64,000 nt of DNA, from the NCBI GenBank assembly GCA_041666915.1, contig JBAYFZ010000001.1, positions 201,086-265,085 on the forward strand. The letters are read 5' to 3'. The first letter of the stretch is position 1, and each line of letters starts with the position of its first letter. Below are positions 11,383 to 26,724 of this stretch, one piece after another. The translations under genes and the position numbers were made by a program. Source of the stretch: Minisyncoccota bacterium (GTDB taxonomy: Bacteria > Patescibacteriota > Minisyncoccia > Phycocordibacterales > PALSA-1337). Below the pieces are notes generated by a model. It was not told the origin of the DNA and made no database searches. It worked only from the letters and a program-made list of their open reading frames with translations.

Positions 11383-11946
11383 TTAATACTTCCTAACAAC
11401 CCCTTTTACAATAGCGGCAACCTTGAGATCCTGCTCCGGATATATCGGTCTATACTTTTTATTGGCTGGTTCTAGATAGATGACATTTCCCTGTTTACGG
11501 AAATATTTCATAGTCCAACCACCATCAACCTCGGCAATGACAATATCACCTGGTTTTGGTTCTCCTTTGCGCTCTGCTATGACCAAATCGCCCTCTTGGA
11601 TACCAGCATCAATCATAGAGTCGCCTTTTACCTCTAATAAATACGTAGCGGATTTATCTTTTATAAGATAATCCTCTATGTTCATGGTGTCAGTCATCTG
11701 TTCATCCATTGTTGTAGGAAAACCAGCTTCTACCAAACCAAGCAAAGGTATCTCACCGATAAGCCTGTTTGGCACAAGCCTGCCTCTAGAATCTTTGTCC
11801 AAAACACCTTCATCAACTAGTTTATTTATAAGTTTGTAGACAGAATTTTTGGATTTGAAACCAAGTAAAGACATAATCTCGGTATAACTAGGCATACGCT
11901 TTGTTCGTTTATAAAAAGAGATTATTTTGTTTTTATAATTTTCCAT
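11383..11946 (-). CDS. lexA: LexA repressor (S24 peptidase)
   Basis: There is an N-terminal wHTH. The Ala-Gly cleavage site is VEAGFP, the Ser nucleophile is in GDSM, and the catalytic Lys is near the C-terminus. The length is 187 aa. Confidence 0.85.
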   Translation of the reverse strand: MENYKNKIISFYKRTKRMPSYTEIMSLLGFKSKNSVYKLINKLVDEGVLDKDSRGRLVPNRLIGEIPLLGLVEAGFPTTMDEQMTDTMNIEDYLIKDKSATYLLEVKGDSMIDAGIQEGDLVIAERKGEPKPGDIVIAEVDGGWTMKYFRKQGNVIYLEPANKKYRPIYPEQDLKVAAIVKGVVRKY

Positions 11947-11985
11947 AAATTAAATAATAAAGTGATACGGTATAAATTTTTTAAA

Positions 11986-12192
11986 TTAAAACATGAAGGT
12001 TGATACGAAACTCAAAGATTTACCAAACCAGTTGGATTGGATCTTGGAGAGCCTAGCAAGCTGAGCCATCAAAAATTTGTGTCTTTGAGATTGTTGTCTG
12101 TATGAAAGACCTTTGATGATGCGTAGGTCAATCTCTCTATTGAGTCTTTCTATCTCACTACGAATTGTTTTGATGGCTTGATGCTTACTCAT
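11986..12192 (-). CDS. Hypothetical 68 aa protein immediately upstream of lexA (co-oriented)
   Basis: The ORF is MSKHQAIKTIRSEIERLNREID..., with no clear family. It is preceded by the palindrome at 12233-12252. Confidence 0.4.
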   Translation of the reverse strand: MSKHQAIKTIRSEIERLNREIDLRIIKGLSYRQQSQRHKFLMAQLARLSKIQSNWFGKSLSFVSTFMF

Positions 12193-12232
12193 GGCTTTGT
12201 ATGATTAATGTTCTCTATTGCCATATCATTAT

Positions 12233-12252
12233 AGGTGAACGATAGTTCACCT
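12233..12252. promoter_or_regulatory. Perfect palindrome AGGTGAAC-GATA-GTTCACCT (GAAC-N4-GTTC, LexA/Cheo-box-like) upstream of the ORF68-lexA pair
   Basis: Read directly. It lies 41 bp upstream of the ORF68 start codon. Confidence 0.45.
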
Positions 12253-12310
12253 GCAAGCAAAAACTGTGGATAACTACATAGTACTCCGGAGGTGTAACCT
12301 CCGGAGAAAA

Positions 12311-13591
12311 TTAGTTGATGAAAGTCAAAGCTTTACCACGCTTGTCACCTCTGCCTGTACGACCAATACGGTGTACGTAGTCATCATAAGTAGCAGGTAA
12401 TTCGTAGTTGATAACATGACTTACATCAGCAATATCAAGACCGCGAGCAGCTACGTCAGTAGCGACCAAGATCTGGACACTTCCCTCCTTGAACATCCTT
12501 AGAGCCTGTTGGCGCTTGGAGTGATTTTTGTTGCCGTGAATAGACTCAGCTTTGAAACCTTTTTCTATGAGCAATTTTGAAAGTCTTTCTACACCATGTT
12601 TGGTGCGACCAAAGACTAGGACTCTACTAAATTCTTTTTGAGCCAAAAGGTTGCGTAAAACATCCAATTTATCTTTTCCAGCAGTACGAACAACGTCTTG
12701 TTCAACATTTCTAGCAGTATCTCCTGTCTTTACAGAGATTCGGACTGGTTCTTTGAGGAATTCACCGATCAGTTTTTCAATAGAAGGAGAAAGTGTTGCA
12801 GAGAAAAATAGTGTTTGGCGGACTTTGGCCATCTGGGACATGACAAGTCTCATGTCACCGATGAATCCCATATCCAACATGCGGTCAGCTTCGTCCAAAA
12901 CGATAGTACTGAAAATAGCTGGATTGATACGTTTTCTATCAATAAGATCTTTGAGACGACCAGGTGTTCCAATGATAAAATTGTAAGGATAGCGAAGATC
13001 AGAAATCTGTTTATTGATAGACATTCCACCAACACAACAGACAGAGAAAATCTTCATACCTTTACTAAAACTTTTGAATTCTTGATCAATCTGCAAAGCG
13101 AGCTCTCTTGTAGGGACGATAATAAGAATGTGTTCAGAAGGTTTCTGAATAACTTTGTTTATAAGAGGGATAAGAAAAGCGGCAGTCTTACCTGTACCAG
13201 TATTTGCAATACCTACGAGGTCTGCACCTTTCAAAATATGAGGAATGGAGCGATCTTGAATAGGAGCTGGAGCGGTATAACCTTTTGTAACAATAGCCTG
13301 TTTGATGCGTTCATCAATGAGAAAATCACCGAAAGCATGTTCGGGTTTGTAGATTTGTGCCTCTTCCGTTACGACAACTTTGTTAACGAAGCGTGCTGGA
13401 TTGAGATATTCTCCTGTAGAACCTTTGTTACCACGGCCTCTCCCTGAGAATTTTGGGCGACCTCCGGCAGTGCCAGGAGATCGTCTATGCTGGCCAGAAA
13501 AGGGTTTTCCTCCTCTTGGCGCGTTTCTAAAATTTGTATACACAGTTGCCCTAGTATAATCCATATTCTTTTCCTTGTCAAGGGTTTGCAT
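12311..13591 (-). CDS. DEAD-box ATP-dependent RNA helicase with an N-terminal RGG-rich tail
   Basis: Helicase motifs GTGKTAAF, PTRELA, VLDEADRMLDMGF, SAT and HRIGRTGRG are all present. Confidence 0.9.
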   Translation of the reverse strand: MQTLDKEKNMDYTRATVYTNFRNAPRGGKPFSGQHRRSPGTAGGRPKFSGRGRGNKGSTGEYLNPARFVNKVVVTEEAQIYKPEHAFGDFLIDERIKQAIVTKGYTAPAPIQDRSIPHILKGADLVGIANTGTGKTAAFLIPLINKVIQKPSEHILIIVPTRELALQIDQEFKSFSKGMKIFSVCCVGGMSINKQISDLRYPYNFIIGTPGRLKDLIDRKRINPAIFSTIVLDEADRMLDMGFIGDMRLVMSQMAKVRQTLFFSATLSPSIEKLIGEFLKEPVRISVKTGDTARNVEQDVVRTAGKDKLDVLRNLLAQKEFSRVLVFGRTKHGVERLSKLLIEKGFKAESIHGNKNHSKRQQALRMFKEGSVQILVATDVAARGLDIADVSHVINYELPATYDDYVHRIGRTGRGDKRGKALTFIN

Positions 13592-13636
13592 CCGTACAAC
13601 GTTCGAGACTTCGTTATAACTACACGAGAGATGAAA

Positions 13637-14047
13637 TTATGGGGTTTTTGGCATCTTGTTTTCATCCATATAGAACACTTCCCAAACATGACCATCTAGA
13701 TCTTGAAAACTTTTGGTGTACATCCAATCCAAATCTTCTGGTTCATGATTAATCTTACCACCAGATTCTATTGCCCTATTAAATACATCATCAACTTCTT
13801 CTTTACTTTCTACCGATAAAGCCAATAACGCCTCTGTCACCTCTTTTGCATTAGCAATCTTTTTCTTGGTAAAAGTCTTAAAGAATTTTTCAGTAACAAG
13901 CATTGCAAAAATATGTTCACTTATGACCAAACATCCCGCTTTTTCATCAGTAAATCTTGGATCAAAACTATACCCAAGATTACTAAAAAATTCCATGGAT
14001 TTACCCAAATCTTTGACTGGTAGATTGACAAATATTTTTGTTATCAT
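13637..14047 (-). CDS. VOC/glyoxalase-bleomycin resistance family protein
   Basis: The 136 aa product starts MITKIFVNLPVKDLGKSMEFFSNLGY, a typical VOC N-terminus. The betabetaalphabeta-like pattern repeats twice. Confidence 0.65.
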   Translation of the reverse strand: MITKIFVNLPVKDLGKSMEFFSNLGYSFDPRFTDEKAGCLVISEHIFAMLVTEKFFKTFTKKKIANAKEVTEALLALSVESKEEVDDVFNRAIESGGKINHEPEDLDWMYTKSFQDLDGHVWEVFYMDENKMPKTP

Positions 14048-14201
14048 GGTGTCAAAAAGTTAATCTCTAATAAATAGACCTTTTATTTATATACGAACGA
14101 ACCACCTATTTGGTTGCAAAATCACCATTTATAGAAGTTACAAAAGGTGAATGTTTATCCATTGTGTTATTATGGCATTTTGACGAGGTGTCGCCTTCGC
14201 T

Positions 14202-14987
14202 TTAATAAGCTACGGCGACCGAAGCGGACTTTGATAAATATCTCTTCCTTTTATCTTCCTCAAACTTTTCTATAGCATATCTGAGCATCGTTCTAGGCAT
14301 GATCTTGTAATTCCTATCCAAAAACTCACATAAGGTTGACTCCGACTTCTTACCGACTTCGCGTAACATCCAACCAACCGCTTTGTGGATGAGATCATGT
14401 TTATCGTCCAAAAGTATTTCTGCTAAACGTAAAGAATCTTTGAAGTCACTTTTTCTTATAAATGAAAAAGTAGAAATTATAGCGATTCTCCTATCCCAAA
14501 GATTTTTTGATACAACTAATTTATATAAAATAGATCTGTCGTTATCAATCAGCCAATTTCCTAAAATATAAGGCGCGGAAGTGTCCACCAAATCCCAGTT
14601 GTTTATATTTTTACGATTATTTAAATAAAATTTAGCAATTTGATCTTTTTCTTTTTGATCAGCTTTTTTGTATTTCAAGACTAAGATAGCCAGTGCCGTA
14701 AAACGATATTCGTGAATATTACTGGAAAGAAGTTTGGAAATTTCAACCAAAGAAAGTTCTTGATATTTCCCTGCCACACTTCTTTGCTGTGGCACCATAA
14801 TACCTAAAAATTTATCCCCTTCTGCATATTCACCTTTACCAGTCTTGAAATATCTTTGTAGGAGTTTGGCTTTGGTAGGATCGGCTAGAGTTTTTAATTC
14901 TTTTGTAATATCGGTGGATTTCATCTCTGGATTATAGCATTTCATCAATCCGCCAACTGGTGGACCGACCTTGACACCTATTACCAA
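14202..14987 (-). CDS. DNA alkylation repair enzyme (AlkD/AlkC-like HEAT-repeat glycosylase family); likely start MKCYNPEM at 14946
   Basis: LQRYFKTGKGEYAEGDKFLGI, NNWDLVD and VGWMLREVGK match the DNA_alkylation family signature. Confidence 0.7.
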   Translation of the reverse strand: MVIGVKVGPPVGGLMKCYNPEMKSTDITKELKTLADPTKAKLLQRYFKTGKGEYAEGDKFLGIMVPQQRSVAGKYQELSLVEISKLLSSNIHEYRFTALAILVLKYKKADQKEKDQIAKFYLNNRKNINNWDLVDTSAPYILGNWLIDNDRSILYKLVVSKNLWDRRIAIISTFSFIRKSDFKDSLRLAEILLDDKHDLIHKAVGWMLREVGKKSESTLCEFLDRNYKIMPRTMLRYAIEKFEEDKRKRYLSKSASVAVAY

Positions 14988-15060
14988 AGGAGTAGATTTT
15001 AAATGGAATAAAACTGTCCCGTCACAGTGCGGGGCATAACAAAGAAAGTGAGTTAGTTCT

Positions 15061-16107
15061 ATGACAACAGCAAATAATACAGTCTCAAAAGAGGCTCCTC
15101 CGGTAGAAAACCAAATACACGACCTGTTCTCGCGCGAGATTCGCCCTATACAAAATTGGAATGAATGGTTGGAACGTTGGCAATCCGCTAAGACGTATGA
15201 GGAAATGCTTGGCCTTTTACACAGAGGTTACAAAGTCATATCTTTTGACCCTCAAAAACATGGCGATAAAAAATACTGTCCAAACGATCGTGATCTCTTT
15301 TATCTAACCATTGCAGATGGTTGGACAAGTAGTTCTTTATTAGAAAAACCCACTGAACATCCTAGCTGGGCATTTAGAATGAAAAGAGAAAACAACAATG
15401 AAGCTGAAGATCTGAGTATTAGCGAAATACGTCAATTGCTTGCTACCAAAGCTTTTGAAATGCTCTGTGCTAATTTCTTTAACATCGGACCATACATATA
15501 CAACGGTGAGGAAAATTGGCGTTGGATAACATTGGTTTCAGAAAAGAAACTTTTTACGATTGTCCAGAACTTTTTTCGTGTTGAAACACGATTCAGTGAA
15601 CTTCAAGTTCGTAATATAGATATAGGCGATAAAGATCTTAGGCACGAGAATGCCAAGAAATTCTTACTCCGTCTAGCTAATTTCATGTGGGCATGGGAAG
15701 AAGACCCAATTAGAGAATGGGATTCTTGTGGAGTAGAGAAAGAAAGAAAAAATCTCATGATACGTTCCACGATATCTTCGGCGATGTTTTGGATGATTGA
15801 AGTTCTTTGTTGTATAAAGGAACTTCGGCTATTAGACAAGCATATCCTGAAATTAGACGACAATTGTTTAATGAAAATGAAGGAAATAGCCTTCAGAAGT
15901 AAGTTCTGCGCACATTCTGAATATGTCATGAAGGAACGCAATGTTATGAGTATTGAAGAAGCTTGTCTTCTAGGCTCAGCACCAGCGTGGCTTTTTAAAA
16001 AACATCAGATCATGAAAGCTGAAGATAAGAGGCTTAAAAAAATCAGGAAAGCTGAACAAGTCAAAGAGTTAGCGGAACAACAATTGAAAAAATTGCAAAA
16101 ACGATAG
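15061..16107 (+). CDS. Hypothetical protein (348 aa), Cys/Trp-rich, with a K-rich C-terminal helix
   Basis: It is a long ORF with a terminator downstream. No recognisable motif was found. Confidence 0.45.
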   Translation: MTTANNTVSKEAPPVENQIHDLFSREIRPIQNWNEWLERWQSAKTYEEMLGLLHRGYKVISFDPQKHGDKKYCPNDRDLFYLTIADGWTSSSLLEKPTEHPSWAFRMKRENNNEAEDLSISEIRQLLATKAFEMLCANFFNIGPYIYNGEENWRWITLVSEKKLFTIVQNFFRVETRFSELQVRNIDIGDKDLRHENAKKFLLRLANFMWAWEEDPIREWDSCGVEKERKNLMIRSTISSAMFWMIEVLCCIKELRLLDKHILKLDDNCLMKMKEIAFRSKFCAHSEYVMKERNVMSIEEACLLGSAPAWLFKKHQIMKAEDKRLKKIRKAEQVKELAEQQLKKLQKR

Positions 16108-16126
16108 TAGTCACCAACTAAACACA

Positions 16127-16155
16127 AGCGGAACCCAAAAGGTTCCGCTTTTTTC
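16127..16155 (+). terminator. Rho-independent terminator (AGCGGAACC-CAAAA-GGTTCCGCTTTTTT); second palindrome TCAAGGTCCGACCTTGA follows
   Basis: Read directly. It lies between convergent genes. Confidence 0.6.
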
Positions 16156-16178
16156 ATCAAGGTCCGACCTTGATGATA

Positions 16179-17081
16179 CTATCTAAACACCATTTCCCCA
16201 TCAAGTTTCAGATTGAAAACCAATTCTCCTTTTGAGGTGAAATGATAACTTTGTACCTCACTCATCATCTTGGAAAAATCATTTTCTTGTGAACCTTCGC
16301 AATACATGAGTGTAGACATCATCCTTTCAAAAGAAATCTTACTGCCATTTACTATATATTCACCACCGACACCATTACAATCGGTCTTAGCTGAGAAATT
16401 GTTACCTTTGAATGTCAGAACAAATCTCGTTGGATCTTTTGGAACTACAATCTTGCCATCTTTATAGACCGTACTTATCCAACTCCAATCCTTCATATCC
16501 AAAGTTATTTTGGCAGGATCAGCTTCACCTTCAAAATTTTGAACAACTTCACCCAACTGCATGGTCTTTGGATCTAATAATATAGATATGCTTTTTCCTA
16601 TTGAAGGTTGTACAGCGAAACTTTCCCCTTCTTTTCTATCAGCATAATTAACAACAATAATATTACCCTTACCCATTTCGGTTGTTTGTGGAGCAATACG
16701 ATCTCCTAGAAGGAATCCCTCTGAACCAACATACCCCCTAGGGGTATTCAAAGCTACAACTAAATAATAGAAAGTACCCGTACCACCAGAATTTTGAGTC
16801 AAGAGAAAAGCGATGTCTTCGCGACCATCACCATTAAAATCGTGTCGGACTTCATTACCAAAGTACCTCGTAACCATTTTTGAAGCCGATACTGGAGTTA
16901 TCTCTATTTCAGACACCCCATTTACAAGTGTGATACTTTTACCATCAATGATGTAAGTTGCATCCTTTGGGTCAGCGTTACCGTTTTGTAAACCTTCTGG
17001 AGCGGTAGAAAGACGAACAGTAAAGACCGCAACGACGATAACTACTATAGCGATAATTGAAATTAAAGAAGGTTTTTTCAT
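16179..17081 (-). CDS. Secreted/anchored protein with an FG-GAP-like calcium-binding loop and a C-terminal META/HslJ-like domain
   Basis: N-terminal TM/signal is MKKPSLISIIAIVVIVVAVF. The FG-GAP-like loop is HDFNGDGREDIAF. The C-terminus has the TDCNGVGGEY...LMYCEG pattern typical of the HslJ/META domain. Confidence 0.45.
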   Translation of the reverse strand: MKKPSLISIIAIVVIVVAVFTVRLSTAPEGLQNGNADPKDATYIIDGKSITLVNGVSEIEITPVSASKMVTRYFGNEVRHDFNGDGREDIAFLLTQNSGGTGTFYYLVVALNTPRGYVGSEGFLLGDRIAPQTTEMGKGNIIVVNYADRKEGESFAVQPSIGKSISILLDPKTMQLGEVVQNFEGEADPAKITLDMKDWSWISTVYKDGKIVVPKDPTRFVLTFKGNNFSAKTDCNGVGGEYIVNGSKISFERMMSTLMYCEGSQENDFSKMMSEVQSYHFTSKGELVFNLKLDGEMVFR

Positions 17082-17098
17082 AGGGTTAGTATACTACA

Positions 17099-17809
17099 TC
17101 AATCCACATAAGCCTCTACGATACCTATATGATTTGATAAATGTAATTTGTCGGCCAAATGCGGAAACATGGTCCTATTCGAAAGACCAATACACAAATC
17201 ATCTAATTTATTCAAACCCGGATATGGTAATAGAGTATAAACTAGATCACTACCTTGAATATGTACTCCGTTCACAAAAAGCGGTAACTCATATAGTACA
17301 TAATCTGTTAGTCTATCTAATTCCTCTTGGGACATTTTTGAAATACTCTCTACTCGATCACTTCTTCCAGACACTACGATATCTGTCATAAAATCATGAA
17401 ATTCTTTATTATTTACAAATTCGTCTTTTATCGCCTGTAAATTATATTTGTAAATCTCATTCTGAGTTACATCACCCCATCTCACTACTCGAACTTTATT
17501 CCGATCTTCTGATGATAAAGTGGCAATAATTTCTTGGATCTCTTCATTCTTCTTGTCACCAATCTTTGTAGCTTTCCTCAAAGCACGCTTAGGACTTCGC
17601 TTATCCAATACCTCCAAATTAACTGTATGCAACGCATCAGGTATTACGATTAAAACACCATCTTTGGTATTAGCAATAGCCCATTTAATATACTTTTCAA
17701 TGTTATCTTTAAAAAAATATTTATTTCCAAGACTTATACCTAACCATATATTATGACGTTTATCTCTTATTTCTTCTGGAGTTATATTCAAATAAGTATT
17801 AATCCTCAT
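17099..17809 (-). CDS. tRNA-dependent cyclodipeptide synthase (CDPS, AlbC/YvmC family)
   Basis: The 236 aa product has WLGISLGNKYF (compare AlbC LIGISAGNSYF and YvmC LVGISPFNSRF, which hold the catalytic Ser). It also has YVLYELPLF (compare AlbC YVLAEAPLF, Y178/E182). Size and motif spacing fit a CDPS. Confidence 0.7.
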   Translation of the reverse strand: MRINTYLNITPEEIRDKRHNIWLGISLGNKYFFKDNIEKYIKWAIANTKDGVLIVIPDALHTVNLEVLDKRSPKRALRKATKIGDKKNEEIQEIIATLSSEDRNKVRVVRWGDVTQNEIYKYNLQAIKDEFVNNKEFHDFMTDIVVSGRSDRVESISKMSQEELDRLTDYVLYELPLFVNGVHIQGSDLVYTLLPYPGLNKLDDLCIGLSNRTMFPHLADKLHLSNHIGIVEAYVD

Positions 17810-17955
17810 AAACTTAGTATACTACGAAAGATGTTTTTATTGAAAAAAATGATAATTTGCGAGACTTGCCAAGTGTTGACTTACGTATCATAATATAGTA
17901 ATCTAAATACCAGATAGAAACATAAACAATAAACCTTAAAGAGAAAGGATCCTCC

Positions 17956-18813
17956 TTGAAAAAACAGAAAATAACTAGTCGTTATGAGTTCAAAAACGGC
18001 CGTGGAACAAAAATTGGAACAATAGTGGTGCTAAACATAATTGCACTAATAGGCATCATCTATTACCTAATAATTCAATCATCAAACCATGAGCCTGAGA
18101 TTGAATCTTATATTCGCTCACAAATTACACAGAAAGACGTAGCTCCGGGTTTCGAACCAGCCTTCATCTACTTCAAACGCCCTAACATGACAAATGAGAT
18201 GTTCTGTTGTGTTGGAACAATATTCAGTGATAAAAATAGTGTTATACAAATAGCCACAGCTGAACATGTCTTTCGGACTGATATACACTCATCGCAAATA
18301 TTAAGTGTACGTACCCTACGTCAAAAAATGAATCCGCCCGTAGCCTACATCAATCGTATTATTGCAACAGGTAAAGAACTCGGTGGACCAGATCATGATG
18401 AACGTGATATTGTTGTTGCCTCGTTAGGATCGGAACCTGTTGTTCTTAAACCATATTCCGGATTCTTATATAACGAAATTGGTCAAAACTTCTGGGGTAA
18501 TGTCGTTATAGGTAAAACTAAAATTACACGTTTACGTTCATTATTATCAGGTGAATACGTAAATACACTTGGCTATGTACAAAGCAGGCAAGGAACAAAC
18601 ATTTCTAACTTTGTTCTTATTGAAAAACATGTTAGGCAAGGTGAGAGCGGTACTGGTTACGTTGATGATTTTGGTGGTTTATGGGTTGTACATTCTGGTA
18701 CAGAAGATAAAAACGAGGAAGCTGAAATCTGTAAAGAAGGTAAACGTATAACAGGTAGACGTATTACCGGTGTCGCTACAGTTTCTGGACCACTCTTCGG
18801 ACATTACAAATAG
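17956..18813 (+). CDS. Membrane-anchored protein with a trypsin-like serine protease-like triad pattern
   Basis: The N-terminal TM is GTIVVLNIIALIGIIYYLII. Candidate triad residues lie in IATAEHVF (His), DERDIVVASL (Asp) and QGESGTGYV (compare GDSGGP). The assignment is weak. Confidence 0.35.
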   Translation: MKKQKITSRYEFKNGRGTKIGTIVVLNIIALIGIIYYLIIQSSNHEPEIESYIRSQITQKDVAPGFEPAFIYFKRPNMTNEMFCCVGTIFSDKNSVIQIATAEHVFRTDIHSSQILSVRTLRQKMNPPVAYINRIIATGKELGGPDHDERDIVVASLGSEPVVLKPYSGFLYNEIGQNFWGNVVIGKTKITRLRSLLSGEYVNTLGYVQSRQGTNISNFVLIEKHVRQGESGTGYVDDFGGLWVVHSGTEDKNEEAEICKEGKRITGRRITGVATVSGPLFGHYK

Positions 18814-18836
18814 AGTGTTGCAGAGTAACAATCTCA

Positions 18837-18882
18837 AGACCTCACACGAAAAGGCATCACGCTTTTAATGTGAGGTCTTTTC
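18837..18882. terminator. Hairpin AAGACCTCACA-loop-TGTGAGGTCTTTT between convergent genes (member of the recurring GACC(C)TCA terminator family)
   Basis: Read directly. Confidence 0.5.
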
Positions 18883-19521
18883 TTATTTCTTAAAATATTC
18901 TGAAACTGTCGTTACCAAATCTTCTGGTTTTTCAACAATCTTAAAAGGTTCTCCACGAATAAGAGTTTCCCTATCATGAAAACCCCAAGTAACTCCAATA
19001 GAACCCATCTTTACATGCTTTGCTTCGCGCATATCACCAAGAGTATCCGTGATGAAAACACATTTATTTGAATCAATATTATATTTAGAAAAAACCATCT
19101 TCATTTTCTCAACCTTACTCGTGTGCACATCATTTCCCATCACTTCTACAAAAAACGGTGCTAGATTATATTTTTCCAAAAGTCCTTGTATCGGAGCTGT
19201 AAGTGTAGAAGAAATCACTATGAGTGTATATGATTTTGCTAACTCTTTTATAACTTTTTCTATACCAGGAATAGTCAGAACTCGTTCTTTTATTCTTGGA
19301 ATATACTCTGCAAAAAAATCAATATCGTGACGACATTTTTCATCATGTTTTGTATCTGCTTTTTGCCAATCATTAATATTTCCTTCAAAACCTTTTTTAT
19401 AATCAGCTTCTGTTGCATTAGGACAGATCATCTTTTTCACCTCAAAGGCTGTAGCAAAAGAATCTACTATAACTCCATCAAAATCAAAGAGAATAAAGTT
19501 GGTATGCATTGATAATTTCAT
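18883..19521 (-). CDS. HAD-superfamily hydrolase (phosphatase/beta-PGM-like)
   Basis: Motif I is FDFDGVIVDS. The C-terminal ITDTLGDMREAK provides the metal-binding Asp motif. Confidence 0.8.
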   Translation of the reverse strand: MKLSMHTNFILFDFDGVIVDSFATAFEVKKMICPNATEADYKKGFEGNINDWQKADTKHDEKCRHDIDFFAEYIPRIKERVLTIPGIEKVIKELAKSYTLIVISSTLTAPIQGLLEKYNLAPFFVEVMGNDVHTSKVEKMKMVFSKYNIDSNKCVFITDTLGDMREAKHVKMGSIGVTWGFHDRETLIRGEPFKIVEKPEDLVTTVSEYFKK

Positions 19522-19528
19522 ATATGAT

Positions 19529-20077
19529 CTAATTCCAAATAATATTCAATTTCGGCCACTTTTCTTTCCAGCGCTTACTCACCACTCTATCGTTGTATGC
19601 CCCAGCATCAGAACATCTAGGATTCATCCGTACAACCAAATTCACCAAATCATCAATCCCGAACGAAGCATGGAGTCGTAGTTCCCCATTATTATCCATA
19701 GACACCGCTATACATGTTGGTATTTCTACCCAATCAGCTAAAGCGTCCTGCGTATCTTTATATGACCCTCTATTGTGCCATTTATGGGTATAAGCTTGAT
19801 TGACAATCTCCCAATCTACACCAGTTTTTTCCTTGGCTTCCAGAGATAGTTGACTATCTTTATTTTCATCAATATTGTTTTTGTCAAAATATATGAGATC
19901 AATATCCCTTGTCGGCACCTTCTCATTTTTATATCCATGCAGATAATCCCAAACTTTATTTCTCACAAACCCTGCACCAATCATCCAATCTGGCAAATTC
20001 AATTTTTGAGCAACGTGCAAAATATCCATCATCCATTTATCATCTTCAATAATTTTTAGAATGTCTTGTTCGGTCAT
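19529..20077 (-). CDS. Nucleotidyltransferase family protein (NTP_transf_6/PF06042-like)
   Basis: WMIGAGFVRNKVWDYLHG...TRDIDLIYFD shows a GxG...DxD nucleotidyltransferase fold pattern. The length is 182 aa. Confidence 0.45.
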   Translation of the reverse strand: MTEQDILKIIEDDKWMMDILHVAQKLNLPDWMIGAGFVRNKVWDYLHGYKNEKVPTRDIDLIYFDKNNIDENKDSQLSLEAKEKTGVDWEIVNQAYTHKWHNRGSYKDTQDALADWVEIPTCIAVSMDNNGELRLHASFGIDDLVNLVVRMNPRCSDAGAYNDRVVSKRWKEKWPKLNIIWN

Positions 20078-20101
20078 TAGATTATGTTGTTGTAGACTTG
20101 C

Positions 20102-20716
20102 ATGGTTATGAATAGTTTATGTTATCATTTTAATACCAACATGTCCCTACTCACTGAACAAAGTAACAAATTCAAGAGCCTCGCGGATGACTTACTCGCC
20201 TCATCAAAATTACCCCAGATTTTAGAAAAATATGGTCAAGTCAGGTTCGTCGGTTCTTACTCGGCAGGATTGATGATGCATGGTGACATTGACATTCACA
20301 TCCTCCGCGACAAAGAGTTTACTAAACAAGAAACGTTGAATATGTTCAATGAAATTGTTGCTTCCACCAAATTCAACAGTTATTACATTGGTGACTGGAA
20401 TGACAGTAATGTTCACCCCAAATTTCCTTATGGATATTACATCGGTTTGAAGACACGGATTGGCGATATTAGATGGAAAATTGATATTTGGTTTGTGAGT
20501 ATTGCTGAGCAGAATCGATTCAATAAGGAAAATATGGATGTAACGAAGCTCACCCTATCTGACGAGCAACGAGAAGCTATTCTAACATTCAAAAAATACC
20601 GACAAGAAAACGGTGTCAAAATATCTGGACAAGAGATTTATGAAATGGTTATAAACAAAGGAATCAACAAACTAGAAGAATTCAAACATTTATTGAAAGA
20701 TCACGTTTCAAAATAA
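20102..20716 (+). CDS. Minimal nucleotidyltransferase-fold protein with a helical C-terminal domain; likely start MSLLTEQS at 20141
   Basis: VRFVGSYSAGLMMHGDIDIHIL fits hG[GS]...DhDh. It is divergently arranged with the previous nucleotidyltransferase gene. Its 3' end overlaps the convergent NUDIX gene. Confidence 0.45.
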   Translation: MVMNSLCYHFNTNMSLLTEQSNKFKSLADDLLASSKLPQILEKYGQVRFVGSYSAGLMMHGDIDIHILRDKEFTKQETLNMFNEIVASTKFNSYYIGDWNDSNVHPKFPYGYYIGLKTRIGDIRWKIDIWFVSIAEQNRFNKENMDVTKLTLSDEQREAILTFKKYRQENGVKISGQEIYEMVINKGINKLEEFKHLLKDHVSK

Positions 20717-21188
20717 GCGCTCTTTTCATAATCCTCTCTCCAACTTCACCCCAATCAAAATACTTTTTGTAATCAGCTGGATCAATCAAATTGATCTCTG
20801 TAATATCTCCATCTGGATCTGACTCAAATGGTCCATAAGGCTCTACTATACAAACTGAACGAGTCTGTCGCACGATCCTATCCGGTTCATAGATGTCTTG
20901 ATAGCCGATAAACTTTTGACTTAATACTTTCATATTCGTTTCTTCTTTTACCTCTCGCACAACAGCTTCTTCATATGTTTCTCCTTGTTCAATACCTCCT
21001 CCCGGTGGAGTCCAATACCCTTTTTCGGATGCATAGACAACAACGAGTTTGCCCTTATAGAAACAAAAAGCATGGACAGCTTGAAGTATTTTTCCATCGA
21101 GATCCTTCAACGGATTATCTTCACGATAAATGAGGTTGAGTTTTTGGCCAGAACGATTAATGTGAGAGAATTTTATTTCCATATGCAT
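20682..21188 (-). CDS. NUDIX hydrolase
   Basis: The Nudix box is PPGGGIEQGETYEEAVVREVKEETNM. Confidence 0.85.
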   Translation of the reverse strand: MHMEIKFSHINRSGQKLNLIYREDNPLKDLDGKILQAVHAFCFYKGKLVVVYASEKGYWTPPGGGIEQGETYEEAVVREVKEETNMKVLSQKFIGYQDIYEPDRIVRQTRSVCIVEPYGPFESDPDGDITEINLIDPADYKKYFDWGEVGERIMKRALILKRDLSINV

Positions 21189-21505
21189 ATGTAAGATATC
21201 TTGATTTTTAAATGACCGTGGTTATCTACAACTTTTGCTGGCTGTGTGGGACGAAGTTGGAACATGTTTATAGAGGAATGGAGGGGGTTAAGGCAAGGTA
21301 TTCACAACCTACCAGACACAGGTGAAATCATTTGAAGTAAATACTGATTAGTATCCAGAGAAGGATTGTCATTATATTTTTGATTTTGATAAATATTTTC
21401 TAATTACATTAGCTGACCTTCGCGGGTTCGTATATTTCTACACCTTACCCCACAAGACTTTTCCAATGTTTTTTAGTTTATCATTTTGACACTCCTCGGA
21501 ATATT

Positions 21506-22123
21506 TTACGCAAAAAGTTTTGCGGCTACAGAAACAATAAAGGCTAGGAGGCCCAGCACGAACAATGTAAAGCGTTTTTGAGATAACATTTCAATTTGGT
21601 ACTTTACGATTGCATGCTTTTCCTTCAGTGGTCCTGAAAAAGTACTGTCAAGCATTCTTTGAATTTTTAAACCTTGGTTCTCCGCAAAAAGTTTCCTTGG
21701 ATACTCATGCTGGCTTTTATTTTCTTTCTCCCAAAGCAGTCTTTCAGATTCCAATATATCTTTTACATTTCTAGTTTTTTCTTCTAAAGCCTTTTTATTT
21801 TCTTCATTGCTTAGAGTTACTTTTATGAACTGTAATAATGATGGAGTATAAAATTCCTTCATTATCTTATCCAAATCAGATTCAAAATCTGATTTCCATT
21901 TATCTTTCTGACTATCAAAGATACTTTTTCTCAGAGACTCCCTGTACTTAGCGTACAACGTAAGAAGTAGGCACAGAACAAGAAGAACGATTGAGACAAT
22001 AGTAGAAATCTTGAAATAGACAGTTTGCCCCGTCTGAAGGGAATATAAAACCACAAAGGCAGCCAACAGGGCTATCGATGCTGTGATTAAGACATTATCA
22101 ATCTTCTCAATTTGATCTTTCAT
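21506..22123 (-). CDS. Hypothetical membrane protein (N-terminal 2 TM, coiled coil, C-terminal TM)
   Basis: Assessed by hydrophobicity pattern only. Confidence 0.4.
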   Translation of the reverse strand: MKDQIEKIDNVLITASIALLAAFVVLYSLQTGQTVYFKISTIVSIVLLVLCLLLTLYAKYRESLRKSIFDSQKDKWKSDFESDLDKIMKEFYTPSLLQFIKVTLSNEENKKALEEKTRNVKDILESERLLWEKENKSQHEYPRKLFAENQGLKIQRMLDSTFSGPLKEKHAIVKYQIEMLSQKRFTLFVLGLLAFIVSVAAKLFA

Positions 22124-22419
22124 ATTAATTTAATGCTTTCTTCATTATGGGTCTTATAAAAATGCTCTTCGGACTCCGAACCTTTCTGCGAAATTGCTGG
22201 CAGGGCTGGACGATGTTCGAACATTTCGCAATATAAATGAGTATGCAGTCAAGGCAATATACCACTTCTTCAGAAGCGTCTGTGAGTCCCCTTCCTTTAC
22301 AATATCTGATTGGTTTCTGTTATATCATTCGGGAAGTATCGACGATATATGGAATTGAAAAAAGACGGCAAAAATTGCCGGGACAAGCAACTTTTACAGT
22401 GAACCGTTACTTGTTTTGT

Positions 22420-22863
22420 TTAAATTACTTCAACTCTCCTCTTAATTTCATAAACAGTTGCAAACGGAAATATGAATGACCCTTTAATCATTTCTGGCTT
22501 ACCATTAATCTCAATGATTGTTTTACGAGCGTATGGTTTTGAAGAATTCTTTCCGTAAATAGACTCAAACATAAGAGGGTTACTAATTTTGTTATTTATC
22601 TCAAAAGAGTCATAAATCTTTACAGACTTTCCTTTCAAAATTCCCTCTATTACATTCTGCTCCATATGGTCTGGCATATCTGCAAAAGTTATGTTTGACC
22701 AAAACTTCATTTGGAAGTTTAGATTATATCGTCTAGCTAATTTCCTAAGACGTAACGACCTTAGCAATTTAGGCCCCATAACAGGAATTGAAAAGATTGG
22801 AAGTAAAATCAGACCAACAATACAAATAGCACCAAATACTTTTATGTTTTCTAAGGATATCAT
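22420..22863 (-). CDS. Hypothetical membrane-anchored protein (operon member 4)
   Basis: It has an N-terminal TM (FGAICIVGLILLPIFSIPV). It lies 2 nt downstream of the previous gene. Confidence 0.4.
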   Translation of the reverse strand: MISLENIKVFGAICIVGLILLPIFSIPVMGPKLLRSLRLRKLARRYNLNFQMKFWSNITFADMPDHMEQNVIEGILKGKSVKIYDSFEINNKISNPLMFESIYGKNSSKPYARKTIIEINGKPEMIKGSFIFPFATVYEIKRRVEVI

Positions 22864-22864
22864 C

Positions 22865-23143
22865 TTATTCTATATTATTCTTCATCCACTCATTCACTTC
22901 TTTAGATACTCCGTATGTCCCCCAATGTTTAACGATCTGAATGACCAATAATTTATCATTAGCATCAAGGAAGCCTTTTAGCTCATCCCTAATTTCACCA
23001 GCAGTTTTTTTACTTTTTACAAACCATACGGAATATAATGGCTTTGCCCACCATGAATAAGACTTAATCTTTGCTATAAGATTAACATAATCCTGTCGTG
23101 TTTCTGGTTGACCTAGATCATATGAAATAAGGTAGGTATTCAT
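22865..23143 (-). CDS. Small alpha/beta protein with Cas2-like secondary-structure pattern (operon member 3)
   Basis: The 92 aa product has YLISYDL..., LYSVWFVKS and KLLVIQI, resembling the beta1-alpha1-beta2-alpha2-beta3 order of Cas2/VapD-like ferredoxin folds. This is a resemblance only. Confidence 0.3.
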   Translation of the reverse strand: MNTYLISYDLGQPETRQDYVNLIAKIKSYSWWAKPLYSVWFVKSKKTAGEIRDELKGFLDANDKLLVIQIVKHWGTYGVSKEVNEWMKNNIE

Positions 23144-23148
23144 TATTA

Positions 23149-23790
23149 TTATTTTATTTCTGAAGTCACAGATACTGGGTTTGTAGATCCAACATCCCTG
23201 ATTTCTTCGATACTTGCCAACTCCACCCCCGTCTCCGAGTCCGTTTGTGGAATTTTTGATAAAATCAGATTCAACATCTCTTGTTTTTTCACCAGTTCAA
23301 TATTTTGCTTTTGAAGTTTACCATTTTCGTCAATAAGTTTCTCAGCAAATTTCACCACACGTTCACGATTAAAGGCACTCTGATCTCTATCGTTTTTTAT
23401 TTCCGCAAGTTCTTTCTGATGTTCAACTCTTTCGGCATTTAATTTTTCTTGATTTTTTTCATCATCCCATAATTTATTCGCTTTATTCCTAATCATTTCT
23501 TGTATATCATTAAGTCTTCCCCTCGCTCCAAAAAAATTGAATTCTTCAATTGAAAAGAAAAGGTACGTAAATACTTTCCTAAAGAAGATAAGCGCACAAA
23601 GTGTAATCGCTGGCCAAATTGTTGCGTTAATTAAGCTTATTAAATGATCGTATGTTAGACCGAAATGAGCAATCGGGATTAATATTGCACCAACTAAAAC
23701 AACAAAGATAACATATGGTAGTAGATCAACAAATTTAGTGGCGAGATTATTCATTCCGATATGGAAATTTACATAACAAAACCTTACCAT
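23149..23790 (-). CDS. Hypothetical membrane protein with a C-terminal coiled coil (operon member 2)
   Basis: It has 3 N-terminal TM helices followed by a K/E-rich coiled coil. Confidence 0.4.
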   Translation of the reverse strand: MVRFCYVNFHIGMNNLATKFVDLLPYVIFVVLVGAILIPIAHFGLTYDHLISLINATIWPAITLCALIFFRKVFTYLFFSIEEFNFFGARGRLNDIQEMIRNKANKLWDDEKNQEKLNAERVEHQKELAEIKNDRDQSAFNRERVVKFAEKLIDENGKLQKQNIELVKKQEMLNLILSKIPQTDSETGVELASIEEIRDVGSTNPVSVTSEIK

Positions 23791-23890
23791 ATTATTTGCA
23801 GAAAAGGAAGGTTTTTAAGAAAATTTCTTCAACTATTAAAATTCCCAATTATTAGTTACAACTACTCCAAATGTAGCCATCAACGATAAA

Positions 23891-24487
23891 TTAAACAATA
23901 GTCGGCTGACACGTCTTAAATGCGAGGACCTCAGAATTGCGCATCAAAATGGTCTTGTTTGTAGTATACGACAAACCTTTGTTTGGCTGATTCTCAAAAC
24001 CAAGATAGACACAACTTACCTTTCGCGCACGAACTTCTTTGATGGCTGGTTGCAGATCAGAATCGGAACTAGCCAATATAATTTCTTTTACAGATTCGTC
24101 ACAAGCCATTGTTACCATATCAACAGCAATTTTTACATCCACACCCTTTTCTTTAAAAACCAAGACTTTCTTTCCATTCAGACCTTCTTCCATTTGCCCC
24201 CTGACGCGTCCACGTAAAACCACTTCAAAACCCTGATTTTCCAGATGAGTCTTCAACAAACGTTGCTCTTCTATGAGTTGCTGGGATTTTTCCCTGCTTC
24301 CTTCATGTACTTTAATCTGGGCAAAATAGAAGATCTTACGATCAATAACAAAACCTTCCAAGACTTTCACAAATAATCCACGAAAATCAAATTCATGCCA
24401 TACTGGTTTGTTGTTTTTAGTCTCACTGAAAACGGCCCTTATTTTGCCCTTGAGATTCTCCCCATCAATTAACAGGACTGTTTCCAT
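23891..24487 (-). CDS. NYN-domain (LabA-like) putative RNase (operon member 1)
   Basis: LIDGENL, KGVDVKIAVDMV and ILASSDSDLQPAIK match NYN/LabA catalytic motifs. Confidence 0.65.
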   Translation of the reverse strand: METVLLIDGENLKGKIRAVFSETKNNKPVWHEFDFRGLFVKVLEGFVIDRKIFYFAQIKVHEGSREKSQQLIEEQRLLKTHLENQGFEVVLRGRVRGQMEEGLNGKKVLVFKEKGVDVKIAVDMVTMACDESVKEIILASSDSDLQPAIKEVRARKVSCVYLGFENQPNKGLSYTTNKTILMRNSEVLAFKTCQPTIV

Positions 24488-24675
24488 GGGGGTATTCTAC
24501 CATATCAATAACGCAAAACCCCAGCGGACCTTGCGGCTGGCTGGGGCGTGTATATCATTATAGTATACCCAAGTATATCTAAAGTCAATACCCATTACAT
24601 TATGGATTTACCACCCAGATTTGCGCCTTTTTTGAAAGAGAGTAGGATTCGGGGTGATTAATTAAACCGCAAACC

Positions 24676-26073
24676 ATGCCCACATATTTTGTTTACTGCC
24701 GCAAATCTACCGAAGCCGAGGATAGGCAGATTTTATCAATTGATTCTCAGATCAATGAACTCAAACAGCATGCCATAAAGAAAGGAATCAAAATTGTAGC
24801 TGTTCTGACCGAGGCCAAATCAGCCAAGGCACCGGGACGTCCGGTGTTTAATTCTCTAATGGAACGGTTGTACCGTGGTGAAGCTGATGGAATCCTGTGC
24901 TGGAAATTGGACCGTCTTGCTCGTAACCCTGTTGATGGTGGTGCTATCATCTGGGCCATGAAGGAACATGGGGTAAAAATTATTACCCCTTTACAGACAT
25001 ACGGACAATCCGAAGACAATGTCGTCTGGATGTACCTGGAATTTGGCATGGCACAGAAATACGTTGATGACTTGAGCCGAACCGTAAAACGGGGTTTGCG
25101 GGCGAAAGCGGAATCTGGTTGGTTTCCAAGCGTTACCCCGCCAGGATACATGAATTGTGAGAACGACGAGGGACGCAATGTTATCGCCAAGGATCCCAAA
25201 CGATTTGATATTATCCGAAAGTGCTGGGACTTAATGCTTACTGGAAAGTACACACCTCCAGAAATCAGAGAAATTGCCAATACCGCATGGAGGTATACAA
25301 CAAATCATGGAAATCCTCTGGGGCGTAGCACCATTTACAACATCTTTTCAAATCCCTTTTACCATGGCACTTATGAATATCCAAGAGGAAGTGATAACTG
25401 GCACACTGGTCGGCATACCCCTATGATAACAGAGGAAGAATTTGATACGGTCCAACACATTTTATCACGATCTCGCCATATGCCACGAAACCGCAAGGTG
25501 TTTGCCTTCACTGGAATCATCCGGTGCGGTGGATGCCAAGGCGCTGTGACAGCAGAGGAAAAGCATCAGATTATATGCCCAGTCTGTAAATTGAAGTTCG
25601 CTTACCGCTCCAAAGAGCAGTGTCCACGATGCCAGACAGCTATCGCAAACATGGTAAAACCAGTCCACCTCACTTACACCTACTACCACTGTACCAAATC
25701 TTCCAATCCCGCCTGTACCGAGCTCGGAGTTGAGCGAAAAGAATTGGAACGTCAGATCATTCGCCACCTTGAAGGTGTGCATCTTCCCGATTTTCACAAC
25801 CACTGGGTTAACACCTGTTTTGGACGTTTGAGCACAAAACCGGATACCACCAGCATGTTGGCAGTCATTACCCAATCATTCCCCAATAGCAGTCCAGATG
25901 TTCAACGAGAAATTGTTACATCAATATTTTCAGCAATAGTTCTGAAGGATAGGGAGATTGGCGTTTCGCTCAAAATTCCCTTTTCATTCCCTAACAAGGC
26001 TGAGGTGCCCACCCCGCTTGACCAAAAATCCTTTACTCAAAAGACGTTGCAGGAGCACATGTCCAGATCGTGA
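24676..26073 (+). mobile_element. Large serine recombinase (phage-type serine integrase/transposase)
   Basis: The N-terminal resolvase domain is YFVYCRKSTEAEDRQ...LDRLARN. A recombinase domain and a Cys-rich zinc ribbon (CGGCQG...CPVCK...CPRC) follow. Local GC is about 47-50% against about 33-35% around it. Confidence 0.8.
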
Positions 26074-26352
26074 CGATTGGTAACCTAAAGCCGACGAAAG
26101 TCCCCTTACAGAAGGAAAACTACCAGTGGCAGCATATTGCTGACGTAAAACTTGAAGAGCTTCCTTTTCTGGTTCGGTGAGTAAATCTTGAACTGCTTTT
26201 TCCTCTTGATTTTTCACACTAGCAGCAATGTGGCAGAGACCAAGGAACCGTACACCCATGTCATGAATTTCTTCATCAGTAGATTCTATTCCTGATTTTC
26301 GTTGGATTTTACGCAGATGCTTAAACGTGCGAGTGGAAAGTATTGGGATCAT
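25984..26352 (-). CDS. Small wHTH protein with a LexA-N-terminal-like DNA-binding domain (possible excisionase/regulator); start uncertain, 3' end overlaps the recombinase gene
   Basis: LTEPEKEALQVLRQQYAATGSFPSVRGLSSALGYQSSRSGHVLLQRLLSKGFL resembles the LexA_DNA_bind fold. Confidence 0.35.
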   Translation of the reverse strand: MIPILSTRTFKHLRKIQRKSGIESTDEEIHDMGVRFLGLCHIAASVKNQEEKAVQDLLTEPEKEALQVLRQQYAATGSFPSVRGLSSALGYQSSRSGHVLLQRLLSKGFLVKRGGHLSLVRE

Positions 26353-26421
26353 TTTCCCAATTTAGCAATATCCTGGCATCATAAACAAGCCTGGACGCCG
26401 ATGGTGTTTACTTTTGGACCC

Positions 26422-26468
26422 CTGTTTACTTGCCTGTACCGTTTATTACCTAGGATCAAAGTAAACAG
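26422..26468. other. Candidate serine-integrase att site: 9-bp perfect inverted repeat CTGTTTACT ... AGTAAACAG with a 29-bp spacer; a third direct TGTTTACTT copy lies at 26405
   Basis: Read directly. The 47-bp size and symmetric arms fit serine-integrase att sites. It lies between the recombinase islet and tRNA-Gln. Confidence 0.3.
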
Positions 26469-26536
26469 ACATGAAAAAAATGGCTTAACAAAAGCCCAGT
26501 TACGAACATCAAATATCCAAGAACTGTATCAGTGTG

Positions 26537-26607
26537 CTGGGGGACAGGGACTCGAACCCCGATAATCAGGACCAAAACCTGATGTCCTACCATTAGACGA
26601 TCCCCCA
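26537..26607 (-). tRNA. tRNA-Gln (anticodon TTG)
   Basis: The cloverleaf was folded by hand: acceptor UGGGGGA/UCCCCCA, D stem GUCU/GGAC, anticodon stem UCAGG/CCUGA with loop UUUUGGU, and T arm CGGGG-UUCGAGU-CCCUG. CCA is not encoded. Confidence 0.8.
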
Positions 26608-26724
26608 ATATTCTGTTATACCTTTGATCCAGCCTGTAATCTTACGATTCAAATCTGAACTTGTTCTTATATTAACCCGTAAAAGGCCGATATACAAGGT
26701 TACATTTAAAACTGAATACTTCTA

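Follow-up and report, generated by a model that had tools for sequence, protein, structure and literature searches.

The 64,000-nucleotide stretch analysed here (the window; contig JBAYFZ010000001.1, positions 201,086 to 265,085) carries an open reading frame (ORF) on its minus strand at 17099..17809, which begins with ATG and encodes a protein of 236 aa. An earlier reading of the window, made from the sequence alone, had taken this protein for a tRNA-dependent cyclodipeptide synthase (CDPS). The ORF, profile matches, residue mapping and a structure model with its fold matches together identify it as the coding sequence of an XYP-subfamily CDPS and support the sequence-only reading with high confidence. 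The protein scores above the curated cut-offs of two family hidden Markov models, Pfam PF16715 (74.4 bits, E = 1.4e-20, gathering threshold 27) and NCBIfam TIGR04539 'tRNA-dependent cyclodipeptide synthase' (92.1 bits, E = 3.4e-26, cut-off 45). In a phmmer search of PDB sequences all 18 matches were CDPSs, headed by the 7QA*/7QB8 series of ParcuCDPS (E ~1e-23); the best match was the chain of the ParcuCDPS E174L mutant and not the wild type, because the window CDPS carries Leu at that position. Both segments on which the sequence-only reading had drawn are present as quoted, WLGISLGNKYF at residues 22-32 and YVLYELPLF at residues 170-178. Their counterparts from the Streptomyces enzyme AlbC, LIGISAGNSYF and YVLAEAPLF, were confirmed in the AlbC sequence of PDB 3oqv_A. 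The spacing agrees as well: the catalytic Ser and the Tyr are 144 residues apart, and AlbC and ParcuCDPS each have 141. The resemblance to CDPSs is far beyond chance.

An AlphaFold2 model built from 36 homologues (predicted local distance difference test score 95.7, predicted template modelling score 0.91) shows a single Rossmann-like domain of the kind found in class Ic aminoacyl-tRNA synthetases (aaRSs), nearest to solved CDPSs; when it was compared with the PDB using Foldseek, the 50 best matches were CDPS structures without exception. To place residues we used an alignment anchored on ParcuCDPS, whose sequence comes from the PMC5816076 supplement. Its register is validated by two pairs of published pocket motifs that it reproduces, GAYAWELY/FEWKYTR for ParcuCDPS and WGVAWHFL/INGDGSG for the relative OGY49632.1. 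A MAFFT alignment of the clade straight to AlbC misplaced the C-terminal half, did not reproduce the ParcuCDPS motifs and was discarded, and a protein considered as ParcuCDPS itself (P0037) proved to be a different protein.

In the anchored alignment the catalytic set of the window CDPS reads S26, N29, D58, Y170, E174, Y196 and P197, corresponding in order to S26/N29/D58/Y167/E171/Y191/P192 of ParcuCDPS and to S37/N40/-/Y178/E182/Y202/(H203) of AlbC. The Ser/Tyr/Glu triad that the sequence-only reading had asked to see after alignment is therefore complete (S26, Y170, E174), and N29, Y196 and P197 are the residues that define the XYP subfamily (X40-Y202-P203 in AlbC numbering). The Ser-Asp dyad is essential in ParcuCDPS by mutagenesis (PMC7613923). 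With S26, D58 and the remaining residues in register, the window protein thus belongs to the XYP subfamily and possesses this dyad. S26, which lies within GISLGN, does not vary in any of the 36 aligned relatives, nor do Y170, E174 and Y196; the full set of seven falls among the 16 invariant columns of this alignment, in which identity to the window CDPS ranges from 41 to 82%. All seven residues also recur in 38 of 38 full-length database homologues and in 38 of the 44 full-length proteins (>200 aa) from the related loci that we fetched. Direct reading of the 236-aa sequence revealed neither of the class I aaRS ATP-binding signatures, HxGH and KMSKS. The string SKMSQ (residues 157-161) was rejected as a relic of the latter, since it lies N-terminal to the Y170/E174 helix and not at the KMSKS position. 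Nine Lys/Arg residues are concentrated between K70 and K87, on a modelled helix (73-96) that matches the basic helix alpha4 of the family and is predicted to bind the tRNA acceptor arm. Family membership, fold, an intact catalytic set and its conservation across relatives are demonstrated for the window protein.

The start region of the gene resembles that of several other genes in the window. A -10-like TATACT box (17816..17821, minus strand) lies 6 nt before the ATG as part of the 12-mer GTAGTATACTAA. This 12-mer precedes only two start codons, those of the CDPS gene and of the META-domain gene downstream of it, and occurs nowhere else in the window; the second TATACT box (17088..17093, minus strand) is again 6 nt before the ATG and just past the CDPS stop codon. 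No Shine-Dalgarno sequence was found upstream of the CDPS ATG, and a sigma-70 consensus scan of the upstream region gave no minus-strand promoter. This pattern of a -10 box alone, suggestive of leaderless transcripts, was first recognised by eye and then counted across the 43 window genes that start with ATG. A box matching TATAAT at 5 or more of 6 positions stands exactly 6 nt before the ATG in ten of them, against ~0.3 expected from background frequency (further examples lie upstream of 4797, 7062, 27777, 47548, 53945 and 59634), and only 3 of the 43 have a Shine-Dalgarno-like 4-mer. The TATAAT-like box at 6 nt is apparently a leaderless-type start signal used genome-wide, and the TATACT box is the probable promoter of a leaderless CDPS transcript. 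That the gene bears the genome's own start signal argues for a native gene that is predicted to be expressed.

The sequence-only reading had suggested inspecting the specificity pockets to predict the product. At the published pocket positions, the P1 pocket of the window CDPS reads WGVPWLFL (W22 G24 V55 P57 W111 L177 F178 L194) and the P2 pocket ISGDGNK (I144 S147 G148 D151 G198 N200 K201). This inspection yielded a likely preference for P1, hydrophobic and not His, but no product, as P2 is without a characterised analogue. The residues with which ParcuCDPS selects histidine, Y55, E174 and Y189, are replaced by V55, L177 and L194, so that the window CDPS does not belong to the His-incorporating type. 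Substitutions of just this V/L/L kind in ParcuCDPS abolish the use of His and allow Leu or Phe, and Y55V, E174L and Y189L, combined as double mutants, turn it into a producer of cyclo(Leu-Pro) and cyclo(Phe-Pro) (PMC7613923). Among characterised enzymes the nearest P1 motifs are LGLPWLFF and the LGVVLLFL of AlbC, each identical to WGVPWLFL at five of eight positions; the main product of the LGLPWLFF enzyme is cPM, with Pro assigned to P1, and AlbC places Phe there. Because the three His selectors are replaced, the P1 substrate of the window CDPS is most likely hydrophobic (Leu, Phe or Pro) and not His.

For P2, the best match among characterised enzymes reaches only two of seven positions, and two of the enzymes at this level are CDPS 92 and CDPS 46. 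Position 4 of the pocket (equivalent to AlbC 159) is Asp, within a Gly-Asp-Gly conserved in the subclade, and is Lys or Arg in most characterised XYP enzymes. Set against the motifs of characterised enzymes, WGVPWLFL/ISGDGNK fits none of the groups for which Gondry et al. 2018 allow a product to be predicted; near-identical pocket motifs occur in that study only among the entries of its 'not classified XYP' sheet. From the pocket residues the P2 substrate cannot be predicted, and therefore neither can the cyclodipeptide. Within the close subclade P2 is conserved (I.GDGNK) and P1 position 6 varies (L, H, S, N, Y or P), a combination that hints at diversification of the first substrate.

The gene had been described as lying amid housekeeping genes. 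It sits instead in a ~15-kb stretch of accessory genes and genes of no assigned function (~11400-26610), flanked by CysRS/CorA on one side and by DNA polymerase III delta' on the other. Besides the CDPS and META genes, this stretch encodes an S24/LexA-like peptidase, a DEAD helicase, a glyoxalase, a DNA-alkylation repair protein, a HAD protein, two nucleotidyltransferases, and NUDIX and NYN proteins. One end of it is occupied by a large serine recombinase (24676-26073, plus strand), a LexA-type helix-turn-helix gene (25984-26352, minus strand) and tRNA-Gln (26536-26607, minus strand). GC content is slightly lower here (0.34-0.365), and no att-like direct repeats linking the tRNA-Gln/serine-recombinase end to the other end were found. 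At one related locus (L004; 160-3286 and 8001-8711) a 65%-identical CDPS is found less than 8 kb from a serine recombinase, a Rep-family protein, NUDIX genes and a META-like protein; the recombinase is 37% identical to that of the window, and the META-like protein is 45% identical over 131 aa. The company of these genes hints that such CDPS genes travel on integrative elements. Gene content, the slight GC dip and this single analogous locus suggest that the ~15-kb stretch may have originated as an accessory-gene island.

Immediately downstream of the CDPS gene, on the same strand and after a gap of 17 nt, lies the META-domain gene (16179..17081, minus strand), encoding a protein of 300 aa whose N-terminus is a hydrophobic anchor and whose C-terminal part is a META domain (Pfam, 51 bits). 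Its functional link to the CDPS is doubtful, since no META gene stands beside the 82%-identical CDPS homologue. A bidirectional terminator-like hairpin (16126..16150), predicted by a consensus scan only, separates it from a convergent gene for a 348-aa protein (15061-16107, plus strand) and would end transcripts from the CDPS and META genes. Upstream, a divergent gene (17956-18813, plus strand) encodes a 285-aa protein that bears a membrane anchor at its N-terminus; neither this protein nor the 348-aa one has a Pfam or NCBIfam match. Pfam and NCBIfam scans of the neighbours within ~6 kb revealed no oxidase, P450, methyltransferase or prenyltransferase that could tailor a cyclodipeptide. With no such enzyme beside it, the CDPS is most economically read as standing alone and probably releasing its cyclodipeptide unmodified.

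To see how relatives are distributed, we searched a profile of the clade against 1.84 billion proteins; 1174 representatives (50% clusters) matched at E<=1e-3, 137 of them at E<=1e-30. In the species representatives of GTDB, CDPS relatives are encoded at 44 loci, mostly in Patescibacteria; about 14 belong to DPANN archaea (Woesearchaeota, Nanoarchaeota and unclassified archaea), and a few come from metagenome-assembled genomes labelled as other phyla. The relatives from DPANN assemblies (L020, L022, L025, L026, L029, L030, L032, L039, L041-L043 and L045) are close ones, with 27-45% identity, and mostly keep the full catalytic set. Pocket motifs split the relatives into several subclades. The type seen in the window is essentially confined to Patescibacteria, and another, FGLAWI.H/IEN.GS., is common to DPANN genomes and those of the candidate phyla radiation (CPR). 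The occurrence of one pocket-motif type in both groups suggests inter-domain transfer of CDPS genes among ultra-small symbionts; we found no paper in the literature on the sharing of CDPSs between CPR and DPANN.

Across 47 non-redundant CDPS loci there is no conserved partner gene, and no neighbour family occurs in more than five. Direct neighbours that do recur were seen at L010 (=L003), L020, L027, L029, L034; L008, L025 (=L007), L032, L033 and L036. Genes for SET-domain proteins adjoin the CDPS gene at about five loci, often overlapping its stop codon, and those for GNAT acetyltransferases at five. A gene for a class I methyltransferase (Methyltransf_25) is found 13 nt upstream of the gene for the 82%-identical homologue. 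These SET, GNAT and Methyltransf_25 neighbours are candidate tailoring enzymes of CPR and DPANN CDPSs, and none of the three kinds of partner is found beside the window CDPS.

We consider it very probable that the window gene encodes an active, stand-alone XYP-subfamily CDPS native to the genome of a Candidatus Paceibacterota bacterium (CPR/Patescibacteria); its activity, mechanism, P1 preference and lack of tailoring are what we infer from the evidence above. By analogy with AlbC and ParcuCDPS the enzyme would follow a ping-pong mechanism. The basic helix K70-K87 would bind the tRNA acceptor arm. A first aminoacyl-tRNA would deliver its aminoacyl moiety to P1, to be positioned by Tyr170 and Glu174 and transferred to Ser26, polarised by Asp58. 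A second aminoacyl-tRNA, entering via P2, would then attack to give a dipeptidyl-enzyme, and Tyr196 would aid the intramolecular cyclisation that releases a 2,5-diketopiperazine.

Several points weigh against this reading. Gondry et al. warn that the P1 code, with its eight positions taken from NYH structures, may fail for XYP enzymes (PMC5816076), and P1 motifs of the xGxPW kind take Pro, Leu or Phe depending on the enzyme. The adjacent 285-aa and 348-aa genes have no family match, so one of them may be a tailoring enzyme that we did not recognise. CDPS 92 and CDPS 46, the enzymes with the least dissimilar P2 motifs, gave no product in Escherichia coli, so that one cannot count on the window CDPS being active, or on its activity being detectable in a heterologous host. 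The same observation underlies an alternative that we regard as quite improbable, namely that the CDPS fold and motifs belong to a homologue making no cyclodipeptide in its host: catalytically silent, or re-purposed, for example, to bind aminoacyl-tRNA for other ends or to pass the aminoacyl group to a different acceptor. Seven XYP CDPSs of Gondry/Jacques were inactive in E. coli, among them CDPS 92 (IKNSGIG) and CDPS 46 (INNTGIA), and the Asp at P2 position 4, where most characterised XYP enzymes carry Lys or Arg, also speaks for this alternative. However, the residues required for CDPS chemistry are strictly conserved over more than 70 relatives with 27-82% identity, a signature of selection for catalysis. 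The CDPS fold is not known to support any other chemistry, and the inactivity of distant relatives in E. coli may reflect tRNA incompatibility or poor expression.

That the CDPS is instead the core of a small cluster, whose product is modified or handled by the META protein or the divergent 285-aa membrane protein, is a very slight prospect: next on the CDPS strand comes the META gene, with an identical GTAGTATACTAA start region and then the hairpin, a META-like gene recurs at L004, and methyltransferase, SET or GNAT genes abutting CDPSs elsewhere suggest that tailoring occurs in the wider clade, but those recurrent partners are not near the window CDPS, the META gene is missing at the locus of the closest homologue, no neighbour family is widely shared, the start-region motif is a genome-wide promoter-type signal and no sign of co-regulation, and we know of no enzymatic role for META domains in diketopiperazine chemistry.

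As an annotation, the stand-alone CDPS adds little, since the family, its presence in CPR and the protein name are already on record. Its value is as an intact representative of a pocket-motif subclade without known product, in a family in which about one fifth of all sequences, and more than a quarter of the XYP ones, have unpredictable specificity. Its natural P1 pocket bears the three substitutions engineered into ParcuCDPS and would thus be a useful natural test of the pocket code. We think it unlikely, yet worth stating, that the WGV.W.F./I.GDG.. subclade makes a cyclodipeptide new among characterised CDPSs and used in the interaction of an episymbiont with its host. One possible novelty would be a product whose P2 residue is basic or polar in some other way, because the conserved Asp of Gly-Asp-Gly replaces the usual XYP Lys/Arg. 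If a cyclodipeptide of an obligate episymbiont did act on the host, this would be of ecological interest, and sharing of the wider clade between CPR and DPANN, if true, would amount to the exchange of a trait useful to an ultra-small symbiotic lifestyle.

Class Ic aaRSs such as TyrRS and TrpRS make charged tRNAs, whereas CDPSs use them ready-charged, and the window CDPS, unlike these enzymes, has no HIGH or KMSKS motif and no anticodon-binding domain. AlbC, the cyclo(Phe-Leu) synthase of Streptomyces noursei (PDB 3OQV/4Q24), is ~20% identical to it and belongs to the NYH subfamily, with H203 where the window CDPS has P197; its P2 pocket (MAVNITP) is unrelated, and its gene is clustered with a cyclodipeptide oxidase gene, of which there is none at the window locus.

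Within CPR the comparison is closer. The sequence-only reading had called such an enzyme unexpected in a streamlined genome, but it is no surprise there, since CPR CDPSs were catalogued earlier, ParcuCDPS has been crystallised, and an identical protein is already named in GenBank (MFA6554112.1, 'MAG: tRNA-dependent cyclodipeptide synthase [Candidatus Paceibacterota bacterium]', on a contig of 450,810 bp). Gondry et al. 2018 reported that CDPS 90 of Parcubacteria bacterium RAAC4_OD1_1 makes cyclo(His-Pro) and cyclo(His-Glu) and listed in Supplemental Data Set 4 about 12 more CDPSs from CPR, along with a single one of an uncultured archaeon (PMC5816076); Sutherland et al. 2022 solved the structure of ParcuCDPS and re-engineered its P1 pocket (PMC7613923). 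Apart from the papers on ParcuCDPS and the 2018 catalogue, literature searches on CDPSs in Patescibacteria, CPR or DPANN turned up no further work. ParcuCDPS is CDPS 90 (ETB63777.1; PDB 7QB8 and mutants), and the window CDPS is only ~26% identical to it, differing in both P1 (GAYAWELY versus WGVPWLFL) and P2 (FEWKYTR versus ISGDGNK). With V/L/L in place of its His-selecting Y55/E174/Y189, cyclo(His-Pro) and cyclo(His-Glu) are not expected from the window enzyme. Much nearer are OGY49632.1 (Buchananbacteria) and OGG79347.1 (Kaiserbacteria), from other species, which stand in the 'not classified XYP' sheet without known product (PMC5816076). They share with the window CDPS the pocket type WGV.W.F./I.GDG.., a length of 235-236 aa and the catalytic set. 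OGG79347.1 has the pockets WGVSWLFI/INGDGTE, and at P1 position 4 the window CDPS has Pro where OGY49632.1 and OGG79347.1 have Ala and Ser, respectively; position 6 is Leu as against His and Leu. Judged by these residues, the three proteins clearly belong to the same subclade.
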